Shown: positions 2,689-38,250 of the stretch, one piece after another
Position numbering within the stretch: the stretch's first letter is position 1
How the letters are laid out: each line of letters begins with the position of its first letter
Origin: an uncultured Gammaproteobacteria bacterium
Lineage (GTDB): Bacteria > Patescibacteriota > Patescibacteriia > Patescibacteriales > CAYMCJ01
Assembly (NCBI GenBank): GCA_964395755.1
Contig: CAYNBD010000001.1
Span: 1-39,531, forward strand
Direction of reading: 5' to 3'
DNA: 39,531 nt
Position numbers and translations under genes: made by a program
Notes under the pieces: generated by a model
The model's database searches: none
The model's input: the letters and a program-made list of their open reading frames with translations, nothing else
Told to the model about the DNA's origin: nothing

Positions 2689-5460
2689 ATGGCGAAAAAA
2701 AAGACCGTCAAGAAAGTTAAGAAAAACCCAAAAAAGAAACCAACGGTGAAAAAAACCGCCCGGATTAAGGTTGCTAAAAAAGCAATCAAGCAGGCGGTTA
2801 AACCCAAAAAGCCGGCCGGTAAAATTGTTGAACCCGCGGTTAAGAAACCGGTTAAGCCGGTTGTTAAGAAATCCAAGGCAGTTCCGGTGAAGAAAATTTT
2901 GGCCGCTGTTCCGTCCCGACCCGTCGGGGAGGAAAAGAAACCAAAGAGCCCGGAGACGGAGGACAAACAGCCGGCCATGGCGGCCGCCAGGATCGTCAAC
3001 GGCAAGGAAAAAACCGCCTTCGGCCTGGTGGAGCCGCGGGCAATCGTAGAAGAGATGAATAAGTCGTATTTGGATTACGCCATGAGCGTGATTGTCAGCC
3101 GGGCCCTGCCGGATGTGCGCGACGGCCTAAAACCGGTACACCGCCGGATTTTATACGCGATGTGGAGCATCGGCCTTAGGCCGAGCGCGAAATTCAGAAA
3201 ATCCGCCACGGTCGTGGGTGAAGTTCTGGGCAAATACCATCCGCACGGCGATACCGCGGTTTACGATTCCATGGTCAGGATGGCCCAGGATTTTTCCCTG
3301 CGCTACCCCCTGGTGCGCGGCCAGGGCAATTTCGGTTCCATGGACGGCGACGGGGCCGCGGCCATGCGTTATACCGAGGCCAAGCTGGCGTCCATTGCCG
3401 AAGAATTATTATTTGACATTGAAAAAAATACGGTTGATTTCGCGCCTAATTTTGACGGCTCGCAAAAAGAGCCCCTGGTTTTGCCTTCCCGTTTGCCCAA
3501 CTTGCTTTTAAACGGCACCATGGGCATCGCAGTCGGCATGGCCACCAACATTCCGCCCCATAATCTGGGCGAGCTGGCCGGCGCCGTTACCCATTTGATT
3601 GACAAGCCGGAAGCGAGCGTGGAGGATTTGATGCAATACGTCCAGGGACCGGATTTTCCCACCGGCGGCGTTATTTATAACCGCCAGGACATTCTCCAGG
3701 CCTATGCCACCGGCAAGGGCGGGATCGTGATGCGCGGCCGGGCGGAAATCATAGAAACTAAAAGCGGCCTGTTCCAGATAATTATTACCGAGATTCCCTA
3801 CCAGGTGAACAAGGCCAGCTTAGTGGAGAAGATTGCCGAGCTGGTCAAGAACAAAAAACTGGAAGGCATCAAGGATTTGCGGGATGAATCGGACAAGGAA
3901 GGAGTGCGCATCGTGGTGGAACTCAAGAAAGACGCTTATCCAAAAAAAATACTGAATAGTTTATATAAACATACTCAGCTGCAGGAAATTTTCCACGTCA
4001 ATTCCCTGGCCCTGGTAGACGGCATCCAGCCCAAAGTGCTGACTTTGAAAATGATGCTGGAAGAATATATCAAGCACCGGGAAGAAGTGGTGCGGCGCCG
4101 GACCCAGTTTGATCTGGACAAAGCCCGGGACCGGGCCCATATCCTGGCCGGGCTGATGATCGCCCTAAACAAGATTGACGCCGTCATTAAGACCATCAAG
4201 GCCAGCCGCGACAAAGAGGTGGCGCGCAAGAATTTAATGCGCCAGTTTAAATTAACGGACAAGCAGGCGGTCGCCATCCTGGAAATGAAGCTGGCCACTT
4301 TGGCCAATCTGGAAAGGTTAAAAATAGAAACCGAACTCAAAGACAAGAAAAAATTAATTACGGAGCTGGAAGCGATTTTGAAATCCCGCGTCCGGATCAA
4401 GGGCATCATCAAGGAAGAATTGAAAGAGGTGGTAAGAAAGCACGGGGACGAACGCCGTACCAAAATCGTGGCGCACGGAGTCAAGGACATTTCCGTCGAA
4501 GACCTGGTGCCGAACGAGGAAACCATGGTAATGATGACCCGGGACGGCTATATCAAGCGCCTGTCGCCCGATACTTTCAAGGTGCAGGGCCGGGGCGGCA
4601 AAGGCGTCATTGGTTTAACCACTAAGGAAGAGGACATGGTTGAATTTTTATTTACTACCATGGCCCATAATGACATTTTGTTTTTTACCACCCGCGGCCG
4701 GGTATTCCAGCTCAAGGCCTATGAAATTCCCCAGGCTACCCGCACGGCCAAAGGCACGCCCATCGTTAATTTTCTCCAGCTTTTGGGCGAGGAAAGAATA
4801 ACTTCCATTCTGCCTTTGGATAAAATTTCCGCCAGCAAGTTTTTGTTTTTCGCCACGGAAAGAGGGCTGGTCAAGAAAGTGAAAATCGAGGCTTTCGCCA
4901 ATGTCCGGCGCTCCGGGCTGATTGCGATTAAAATCAGGCCGGAAGACAAGCTGATTTGGGCCAAGTCGACCGGCGGTAGCGACCACATTCAGCTGATTAC
5001 CGCCGGCGGGCAGGCGATCCGTTTTCGGGAAAGCGACGTCCGGGACATGGGTCGGAACGCGGCCGGGGTAATCGGCATTCGTCTGAAAAAGGACGATATC
5101 ATGGTTGGCATGGGGGTTATTAAGAGTGATAAGGAAAAATTAAAAAAATACCAGGTGTTAACGGTGATGGAGAACGGCTTTGGCAAGCGCACCCCCCTGA
5201 ATTTGTACAAAGTTCAGGGCCGGGGCGGCTCCGGCATCAAGACCGCCCGGGTAACGGCCAAGACCGGCAAGCTGACCAACGCTTTTGTCGTTAATGCCGA
5301 GAGCATGAAAGATAAGGACCTGATCGTAATTTCGGAAAAGGGCCAGGTAATCCGCCTGCCGTTTAAGACTGTGAACCAGACCGGGCGCGACACCCAGGGT
5401 GTGCGGGTAATGCGCTTTAAAAACGAGGGCGACAAAGTGGCGTGCGTGACGTGGACATAA
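2689..5460 (+). CDS. gyrA: DNA gyrase subunit A with an N-terminal lysine/proline-rich extension of about 96 aa
   Basis: [27 protein letters not shown]; catalytic Tyr in [10 protein letters not shown]; GyrA box QGRGGKG; six beta-pinwheel blades. Residues 1-96 are AKKK/KKPVKP repeats. An alternative ATG at 2977 would give a canonical-length protein. Confidence 0.95.
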
Positions 5461-5510
5461 AAAAATAAGAAAAATAAGAAAAATAAGAACGAGAAGAATC
5501 AGGAATCAGG
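5461..5510. repeat. Tandem AAAAATAAG x3 followed by AACGAGAAGAATCAGGAATCAGG
   Basis: Read directly. 5480-5499 is identical to the reverse complement of 6717-6736. Confidence 0.85.
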
Positions 5511-5537
5511 GTTGTTTAATACAATTGACAGTTATTT

Positions 5538-5619
5538 GTCATTGCGAGGATCCCCGACCGAACGAAGCGGGTGTCGGGGGACGAAGCAATCTCTATTTTG
5601 CATTTAGGTGATTTTAAAG
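5538..5619 (+). repeat. Dispersed element copy 1: GTCATTGCGAGG - variable GC hairpin - CGAAGCAATCTCT - ATTTAGGTGATTTTAAAG
   Basis: It shares both flanks and the 18 nt tail module with the minus-strand copy at 38107-38192. Its inner hairpin CCCCGAC/GTCGGGG is unique to this copy. Confidence 0.8.
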
Positions 5620-5625
5620 TATAAA
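5598..5625 (+). promoter_or_regulatory. Candidate promoter (TTGCAT-16 nt-TATAAA) partly built from the repeat tail module
   Basis: TTGCAT at 5598-5603 and TATAAA at 5620-5625, 32 nt upstream of the ATG at 5658. Confidence 0.4.
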
Positions 5626-5657
5626 TGTGAAGGCTAATATAATAATTTAATAAAACT

Positions 5658-6059
5658 ATGGTGGAAAATTTAAAACAATCAATGGAGGGAAAAGCACAAG
5701 AATCCCCCGAAGACCGGCTGCGCCGCATTGCCGCGGAAATTGATGACATCGTGGCTGACCATGAGGGAGCGATAGAGTCGGGTAAATCAGGGGCGGAGAC
5801 GGAAGCCAGACAAAAGTATGGCCGTCCTTCCCTGGAAGAAGAGCATAGTCTGCAATTGGTAAACACCTGGGTACCAGCATTAAAAGAATTAGCCGTGCGC
5901 AAAGATCTTAATTCTGGGTTGGTTGAAATGATAAAAGAGAAAGCCCAAATCGCGGCCGGCGCCTTGGAAAAGTTGGGTTTGGTTGGCCGGCTTGACTCCG
6001 AAAACAGGAGCTGGCTGGAAGGGTTTGTCGCCAGAAAGCTGGAAGATCAACGCAAATAA
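5658..6059 (+). CDS. Hypothetical protein, 133 aa
   Basis: Intact ORF with coding-like composition. No motif recognised. Confidence 0.5.
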   Translation: MVENLKQSMEGKAQESPEDRLRRIAAEIDDIVADHEGAIESGKSGAETEARQKYGRPSLEEEHSLQLVNTWVPALKELAVRKDLNSGLVEMIKEKAQIAAGALEKLGLVGRLDSENRSWLEGFVARKLEDQRK

Positions 6060-6096
6060 AAGACAACGATTAATCCCCTATAACCTTTTATACTCC

Positions 6097-6125
6097 TTGA
6101 CAATGCCGGGGAGATGTGCTAACCT
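6097..6125 (+). promoter_or_regulatory. Candidate promoter (TTGACA-17 nt-TAACCT)
   Basis: TTGACA at 6097-6102 with a weak -10 at 6120-6125. Confidence 0.35.
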
Positions 6126-6231
6126 ATGGTCATAATTAATTTAAGTGTTTTGTCAAACTTATTTTAAACTTTTCATTTAGCAGGAATTGATTTTAAACAT
6201 TAAGTTAAACAAAACCAAAAAAGTCATTAAA

Positions 6232-27578: not shown

Positions 27579-27651
27579 TGCGCCCAGGAGGATTCGAACC
27601 CCCGACCGTTTGCTTAAGAGGCAACTGCTCTACCAGCTGAGCTATGAGCGC
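27579..27651 (-). tRNA. tRNA-Lys (anticodon CTT), 73 nt, no encoded CCA
   Basis: Hand-folded cloverleaf: acceptor GCGCTCA/TGGGCGC, D stem GCTC/GAGC, anticodon loop CTCTTAA, T arm GGGGG-TTCGAAT-CCTCC, discriminator A. Confidence 0.85.
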
Positions 27652-27657
27652 TCATTT

Positions 27658-27738
27658 AGTTATAAAGTTTAAAGTAGAAAGTTATAAAATAAATTTTAAC
27701 ACTTTTAACTTTACAACTTTATAATTTTTACTAATTAG
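27658..27738. repeat. Word palindrome (AAGTT/AACTT words) between tRNA-Met and tRNA-Lys
   Basis: AGTTATAAAGTTTAAAGTAGAAAGTTATAAAA faces TTTTAACACTTTTAACTTTACAACTTTATAA. Confidence 0.8.
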
Positions 27739-27812
27739 TAGCTGGGGTGGGGATTGAACCCACGACCTTAGCGTTATGAGTGCTACGCTCTAACCAACTG
27801 AGCTACCCAGCC
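27739..27812 (-). tRNA. tRNA with CAT anticodon (elongator Met or lysidine-type Ile2), 74 nt
   Basis: Acceptor GGCTGGG/CCCAGCT (G1-U72 wobble), D arm GCTC-AGTTGGTTA-GAGC, anticodon loop CTCATAA, T arm GTGGG-TTCAATC-CCCAC. It lacks the three G-C pairs of initiator anticodon stems. Confidence 0.8.
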
Positions 27813-27815
27813 ATG

Positions 27816-27887
27816 TGCTCCCGTCAGGACTCGAACCCAAAATCCTTGGTCCGAAGCCAAGTGTGATATCCATTTCACCACGGGAGC
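27816..27887 (-). tRNA. tRNA-Arg (anticodon TCG), 72 nt
   Basis: Acceptor GCTCCCG/CGGGAGC, D arm GTGA-AATGGATA-TCAC, anticodon stem CTTGG/CCAAG with loop CTTCGGA, T loop TTCGAGT. Confidence 0.85.
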
Positions 27888-38068: not shown

Positions 38069-38192
38069 TGTCATTGCGACACCCGCCCGCTGGCGGGGAA
38101 GCAATCTCTTTAAAATCACCTAAATATAATTACAGAGGTTGCTTCGCCCCCCGCACCAGTTTTTCAAACTGGAGCGGGGCTCCTCGCAATGA
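38069..38192. repeat. Inverted pair of the conserved-flank / variable-hairpin element
   Basis: The short plus copy (38069-38108) is GTCATTGCGAC-CCCGCC/GGCGGG-AAGCAATCTCT. The long minus copy (38107-38192) is GTCATTGCGAGG-CCCCGCTCCAGTTT/AAACTGGTGCGGGG-CGAAGCAACCTCT-ATTTAGGTGATTTTAAAG. Confidence 0.85.
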
Positions 38193-38250
38193 CGAATAAA
38201 GGCGGTGATTTAACCAAATGCGCAAGTATTAAATTAATAAATTAGAGTTT

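Follow-up and report, generated by a model that had tools for sequence, protein, structure and literature searches.

The dispersed element at 5538-5619 on the forward strand of the window (the whole analyzed stretch of 39,531 nucleotides, which is contig C1 of a 0.9-Mb Patescibacteria genome of 74 contigs and 43.6% GC) is probably a truncated DNA hairpin repeat of the SRM (Ssn-related motif) kind, named after the Ssn enzymes, small single-domain GIY-YIG nucleases of single-stranded DNA. As such, it would be a variant of an already known selfish or genome-shaping repeat. The doublets and half elements of the same family are probably non-autonomous derivatives that depend on a nuclease.

Architecture of the two copies in the window

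Copy 1 features a solo, SRM-like Y arm at 5538-5591 on the forward strand, as judged by sequence and DNA fold. The arm opens with a GTC tag (5538-5540), continues with an outer stem in which ATTGC (5541-5545) pairs with GCAAT (5586-5590), and carries a C at 5591, immediately 3' of the palindrome. Its interior consists of a GA/GAA internal loop and a variable inner hairpin, CCCCGAC...GTCGGGG. In terms of modules, GTCATTGCGAGG covers 5538-5549, the hairpin CCCCGAC/GTCGGGG follows, and CGAAGCAATCTCT covers 5582-5594. The loop module ACCGAACGAAG(C/T)G is common to copy 1 and to arms at C33:9874 and C40:5160. Downstream of the arm, the 3' flank TCT and a 7-nt spacer, ATTTTGC (5595-5601), make up the stretch 5592-5601 on the same strand, which by alignment is the conserved part of the A-type core (consensus ..TTTGCA..) and contains a -35-like TTG. 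The tail ATTTAGGTGATTTTAAAG (5602-5619, forward strand) is the remainder of this A-type doublet core. Copy 1 is a half doublet: arm and core are present, the second arm is absent, and the element has a clean end at 5619, after AAAG. In full doublets, the tail abuts the 3' end of a second, inverted arm, with AATCTCT directly joined to TTAAAATCACCTAAAT. Folded as single-stranded DNA, copy 1 forms the ATTGC/GCAAT stem and the inner hairpin, with a z of -0.9 that is no better than shuffles.

The element begins 78 nt after the gyrA stop codon, and its downstream neighbor is a 133-aa gene with its ATG at 5658. This gene has one homolog only among 41 relatives (49% identity, in another context), no exact record, and no relatives in a metagenome scan. 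Between the gyrA stop codon and copy 1 lies an A-rich stuttered repeat, (AAAAATAAG)n, at 5461-5510.

The preliminary description had the unit recur at 38107-38192 on the other strand with the same order and spacing. The same modules do recur there in the same order; however, the span is 38108-38193, and the spacer is 8 nt long in copy 2 versus 7 nt in copy 1. Read along the reverse strand, copy 2 is laid out as arm (38193-38134), spacer (38133-38126), and tail (38125-38108). Its Y arm, that of a full A-type doublet (38137-38193, reverse strand), carries the inner hairpin CCCCGC-CCAGTTTGAAAAACTGG-GCGGGG, and its A-type core (38108-38133, reverse strand) combines the 8-nt spacer GTAATTAT with the tail ATTTAGGTGATTTTAAAG. 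Common to both copies are GTCATTGCGAGG, the hairpin, CGAAGCAA(T/C)CTCT, and the identical 18-nt tail. For the tail, 2 matches were observed, a number reached in 0 of 100 shuffles, and GTCATTGCGAG at up to one mismatch gave 4 matches versus 0.42 expected.

A third copy had also been counted. An arm is indeed present at 38070-38106 on the forward strand (GTCATTGCGAC-CCCGCCCGCTGGCGGG-GAAGCAATC), but it is the X arm, the inverted partner of copy 2. Because this inverted arm abuts the tail, copy 2 is an inverted doublet of arm, core, and arm. When single-stranded, the doublet adopts a four-way fold (z = -9.2 and -9.4).

The arm family and its probable partner genes

A structured genome search with the form GTCATTGCGA(G), variable hairpin, (A/T)AGCAATC(Y)C yielded about 20 arms at 13 loci, with the plan GTC, ATTGC, variable hairpin, GCAAT, C. 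All 20 start with GTCATTGCGA at up to one mismatch, most of them preceded by T or C, and ATTGC...GCAAT then C is found in 19 of 20, copy 2 having GCAAC then C. Whether the flanks mark many loci, a check that the preliminary description had proposed, is answered by 16 exact GTCATTGCGAG matches and these arms in the genome, together with arms in 18 of 41 related genomes, where a reversed-pattern control gave 0 matches. The inner hairpins differ in sequence yet pair, with a median z of -2.95 versus shuffles and 10 of 19 individually significant. The loop position is filled by a few recurring modules: CCGCCAGCTGGCGG (C1:38070, C3:7074, C43:8232, and C48:2332), CCAGTTTGAAAAACTGG (C1:38193, C48:2407, and C68:1586), and ACCGAACGAAGYG (C1:5538, C33:9874, and C40:5160). 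These modules are common to arms at separate loci and to the relatives G017 and G007, as if small palindromes nested inside the arm loops.

Eight of the 13 loci are inverted doublets around a core of about 25-50 nt, and the remainder are solo arms. Of 15 repeat loci, 13 are intergenic, that is, between ORFs, often 10-40 nt from gene ends. The doublet cores belong to two types, A (with the tail) and B, each conserved and asymmetric. Type A (..AATCTCT, 8-11 nt, TTAGGTGATTTTAAAG, AGAGATT..) is found at both C1 loci, C4, C43, and C33:9874; type B (..AATCCCGTGAATAGCC...ACGGGATT..) at C3, C40, C48, C59, and C68. Because the "tail" of the preliminary description occurs in the core across A-type loci, it belongs to the A-type core. 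The arm-plus-tail unit nevertheless proved real as a unit: the nearest relative of copy 1 is the half element at C33:9874, a second solo copy that has the loop module GACCGAACGAAG.G.GT.TCGGGGGACGAAGCAATCTCT and the core in common with it, and the unit has therefore been copied as such. Two further observations concern the same group of repeats. At C33:9965-9990, a perfect 22-nt palindrome, TGTACAGAGATATCTCTGTACA, takes the place of the missing arm of this second half element. At C32:6059-6130, two arms of yet another type, the third and NTS-like (GTCATTCCCGCC...GGCGGGAATCCAG), are nested, and their neighborhood lacks an Ssn gene.

The genome holds six GIY-YIG matches. Two of them, on C48 and C62, are single-domain proteins of about 100 aa with intact GIY, YIG, R, and E motifs and the C-terminus REKxIK...NPxW. 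The C48 Ssn-like ORF (C48:1849-2163; GIY..YIG..R..E intact; PF01541, 3.9e-11) is followed, after 17 nt, by three clustered ATTGCGAG arms, which are present on its 3' side only; its protein has no NCBIfam family and no PDB sequence relative. At C62:1922-2290 and C62:2315-2611, four or more clustered arms of a sister repeat (GTCATTCCGA...GGAATCCCTTAAA; also GTCATTCCGA..GGAATCCC) lie immediately upstream of the second Ssn-like gene. Judged by sequence, the C62 gene and the sister repeat, whose stem is different, provide this genome with a second putative nuclease/arm pair. The remaining four GIY-YIG ORFs (C50:980-1189, C17:16246-16452, C8:13560-13769, and C56:374-553) are tRNA-associated and weakly similar to group I intron endonucleases (TIGR01453). 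They sit inside or against tRNA genes and run into tRNA-like sequence; 5' tRNA fragments recur at the C8 locus, which also has a run of N.

Among the 41 relatives, homologs of the C48 protein occur in 27. The minimal arm in these genomes is GTCATTGCGA-GCGAAGC-GAAGCAATC, and the arm loop takes unrelated inserts of 3 to 45 nt. At the fetched loci, the homolog gene is typically bracketed in the order arm (forward), gene, arm (reverse), and the arm type varies with the protein: ATTGCGAG arms bracket the closest C48 homologs, the canonical Neisseria-type NTS GTCATTCCCGCGAAAGCGGGAATCCAG brackets homologs 50-60% identical to the C48 protein, and ATTCTGAG and ATCCTGG arm types bracket other homologs. 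The co-occurrence of arm and gene is moderate only, with a C48 homolog at E<=1e-20 in 10 of the 18 arm-bearing genomes; G007 holds 23 arms yet only a weak match, at a contig end.

In the relative G011, a 395-bp arm-gene-arm unit occurs at two loci (L017 and L037; C10:36454-36846 and C12:18902-19294; ends TGTCATTGCGAG...CTCGCAATGACA) with 395 of 395 positions identical and unrelated flanks. The repeats of the family are inverted; no target-site duplication was seen at these two identical insertions, and no empty site was found, also for the doublets. In both copies, the conserved REKQIK motif contains the same in-frame TAG, which would mean a recent duplication of an already disabled copy or readthrough of the stop.

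Beyond the relatives, the minimal arm GTCATTGCGAGSGNAGCGAAGCAATC, a 26-mer, is exact in >120 contigs from many phyla, including Alpha-, Gamma-, and Deltaproteobacteria, Bacteroidota, Chloroflexi, Planctomycetota, Omnitrophota, and others. Three of these contigs also hold an Ssn-like gene, which in two of the three lies 10-12 nt from the arm. For the tail, exact and degenerate searches of the genome and of metagenome contigs returned only the G002 copies, a MAG221-type family, and chance AT-rich matches, and a 2-mismatch scan of 316 genomes of the same order stayed near the noise level of the control. In MAG221 and two other Parcubacteria MAGs, a similar tail, AATCTCT joined to TTAAAAGCATCTAAAT, abuts a different arm type (GTCATTCCCGA...TCGGGAAT); because of this, the 3' flank TCTCTTTAAAA may be a functional part of some arms. 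These MAGs (MAG221 being G139; L062-L099) contain at least 19 copies of GTCATTCCCGACACAC...TCGGGAATCTCT with TTAAAAGCATCTAAAT, followed by a conserved AT-rich stretch (TATTTTTTAAAATAATGGTTGTTAATATA)—a larger repeat unit that is often located at contig ends. A Shine-Dalgarno-like AGGTGAT in the tail was considered and rejected; it is not conserved in the C33, C43, G002, or MAG221 copies.

Comparison with known repeat systems

SsnA cuts single-stranded DNA upstream of the NTS (the Neisseria Transformation Sequence, one of the SRM), in one orientation only, and the characterized Ssn enzyme family acts on single-stranded DNA, not on RNA (Chenal et al., Nat Commun 2025, PMC11893778). Cleavage depends on the three bases 5' of the palindrome, GTC in Neisseria meningitidis, and binding in this species depends on the C that follows the palindrome (PMC11893778). 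The loop of the NTS is dispensable and extendable, the repeats of Ssn systems are rare inside genes, and the arrangement NTS-ssnA-NTS resembles an insertion sequence (PMC11893778).

The arms described here have the same frame as the SRM/NTS CGTCATTCCCGCGMAVGCGGGAATCYRG, namely (Y)GTC, ATT-stem, loop, stem-AAT, and C; in both, the loop is free to vary, and the copies are intergenic and clustered. The gene bracketed by arms in the relatives parallels NTS-ssnA-NTS. The published architectural features are all seen in the arms, among them three SRM traits: GTC 5' of the palindrome, C after it, and adjacency to a single-domain GIY-YIG gene. The arms differ from the SRM in their ATTGC/GCAAT stem with the GA/GAA internal loop, in loop inserts that reach about 45 nt, in their arrangement as inverted doublets that lack a gene and have a conserved core of one of two types, and in a copy number of about 20 in a 0.9-Mb Patescibacteria genome, not hundreds. 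The published degenerate SRM pattern, HGTCWYN(0-2)YYVSBRHN(0-5)WNVSBRGN(0-2)RNCYNB, recognizes the NTS control; copy 1, the minimal arm, and the C62 type all escape it, and its 1 match in the whole genome is a chance one. Since this pattern misses the arms, they are filed, by analogy, as a variant of the SRM design and not as a strict SRM member.

Each arm comprises the GTC, the 5-bp outer stem (ATTGC/GCAAT), a loop that can take any self-pairing insert, and the C after the stem. By analogy with the SRM, it would fold when the DNA is single-stranded, as in replication, repair, or uptake, and the folded arm would be bound by the C48 nuclease and cut just 5' of GTC, as in Neisseria SsnA. Doublets and half elements may spread or persist through this nuclease. 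Copy 1 itself would have no dedicated cellular function, and any -35 contribution to the downstream gene would be incidental.

Read as an SRM variant, the family extends the partnership of Ssn nuclease and hairpin repeat, published in 2025, to the Patescibacteria. Genome surveys with the published pattern would undercount such repeats, because this pattern misses the arm design and the same 26-mer is exact in many phyla. The published idea of NTS-ssn-NTS as a tiny insertion sequence gains support from the doublets that lack a gene, from the half elements, and from the duplicated arm-gene-arm unit with its 100% identity. For annotation, 5538-5619 is a repeat, not an RNA gene, and the promoter call is unproven.

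The preliminary description had proposed a REP/MITE-like repeat. The general form stands: a genome-wide, intergenic, hairpin-forming DNA repeat whose arms pair up as inverted doublets and for which a parent form with a gene exists. As partner enzyme, however, neither a RAYT nor a DDE transposase fits; it is most likely a GIY-YIG nuclease of the Ssn type. Correia elements of Neisseria are bacterial MITEs able to create promoters or terminators at their insertion sites. The present repeats resemble them in being gene-less units of about 85-160 bp with terminal inverted repeats and possible outward -35 signals, and differ from them in that no target-site duplication was seen at the two G011 sites, a DDE transposase parent is absent, and the ends are structured hairpins.

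Regulatory and other readings

Copy 1 could be regarded as a mobile regulatory cassette whose -35 box TTGCAT, together with the flanking TATAAA, drives the 133-aa gene at 5658, although this is unlikely. The spacing given in the preliminary description is correct: TTGCAT (5598-5603) and TATAAA (5620-5625) are 16 nt apart, and the predicted hybrid promoter TTGCAT-16-TATAAA (5598-5625, forward strand) has its -35 box inside the element and its -10 box in the flank. The TTG is present at the -35-like place in 5 of 7 A-type cores, which is conservation by descent, and all seven A-type copies read arm, tail, and downstream gene start. In addition, a consensus -35 box, TTGACA, lies at 5526-5531, 6 nt upstream of copy 1, and TTGACA-17-TAAAAT stands upstream of the G003 ortholog (L008 1400-1470), where the element is absent, so that an older promoter may have been split by the insertion. 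However, the distance between TTGACA and TATAAT is 24 nt, not 17, once the element is removed. The -35 box reaches only 3 of 6 consensus positions and the whole promoter 8 of 12, and a scan of 5300-6200 returned no forward-strand promoter, with 1 promoter-like match versus 1.4 in shuffles. A competing perfect TATAAT at 5638-5643 (forward strand), separated by 14 nt from the ATG at 5658, is at least as good a -10 box as TATAAA. As the preliminary description stated, the other copy is without a -10 box: the tail of copy 2 is followed by AGAGATTGC, which belongs to the second arm. Because full doublets have a second arm at the -10 place, the element itself carries no promoter. The orientation bias, finally, fits strand-specific insertion on single-stranded DNA equally well.

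This bias concerns seven A-type copies, five in this genome and two in G002, all of which are co-directional with their flanking genes and run from Y arm through tail to the next gene start. The B-type doublets between co-directional genes (n=3) also have a single orientation, and the opposite orientation relative to genes is seen as well, in further arms and B-type doublets. The uniform A-type orientation is not predicted by a purely neutral element. It could stem from strand-specific insertion on single-stranded DNA or from a transcription-related role, n=7 being too few to choose between them. The A-type unit might go further and be a strand-specific micro-element that is mobilized by Ssn on single-stranded DNA, inserts in one orientation between co-directional genes, and rebuilds promoters with its -35-like core, but this is unlikely. 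If true, Ssn repeats would supply ultra-small genomes with portable regulatory parts.

A terminator or 3'-end stabilizer role has been proposed for REP elements. Such a role at the RNA level, with the arm and its U-rich flank acting on the upstream gene gyrA, is doubtful for copy 1. Its position 78 nt after the gyrA stop codon, the CTCTATTTTGCATTT after the outer stem, and the reading of all A-type copies in the transcription direction of the upstream gene fit this role. Yet the scan found no terminator-like site at either C1 locus, copy 2, C4, and C43 lack a T-rich flank, the fold of the solo arm (z = -0.9) does not exceed that of shuffles, and other arms and B-type doublets are placed in the opposite orientation.

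The assignment to a truncated repeat of the SRM kind also has to be weighed against a REP/REPIN family mobilized by a RAYT, an IS200/IS605-like Y1 transposase. With REP, BIME, and REPIN elements, the repeats have in common the short hairpin with a 5' tag, the inverted doublets, and the intergenic position, and with REP/RAYT systems the single partner gene flanked by its own repeats. The doublet architecture is REPIN-like, and three Y1_Tnp-like ORFs exist in the genome. Mobilization by a RAYT is nonetheless highly improbable: 0 arms lie within 3 kb of these three ORFs, the 5' tag is GTC and not GTAG, and the arms enclose no gene but that of a GIY-YIG nuclease, which takes the partner place that a Y1 transposase has in REP/RAYT systems.

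A small RNA gene family, the other suggestion of the preliminary description, has the conserved hairpin, compensatory variation, and intergenic position on its side, but is hardly tenable given the lack of any Rfam match, both at the gathering threshold and at E<=1, the reverse-complement (strand) symmetry of the doublets, solo arms in both orientations relative to genes, no promoter or terminator framing the unit in the scan, the acceptance of unrelated loop inserts of 3 to 45 nt, and the action of the Ssn family on single-stranded DNA.

Gene direction and GC skew switch together near 26-28 kb of the window. Between 26000 and 28500, around a tRNA cluster at 27579-27887, the genes change from the forward to the reverse strand and the GC skew falls from about +0.15 to about 0; this switch is a possible replication landmark.
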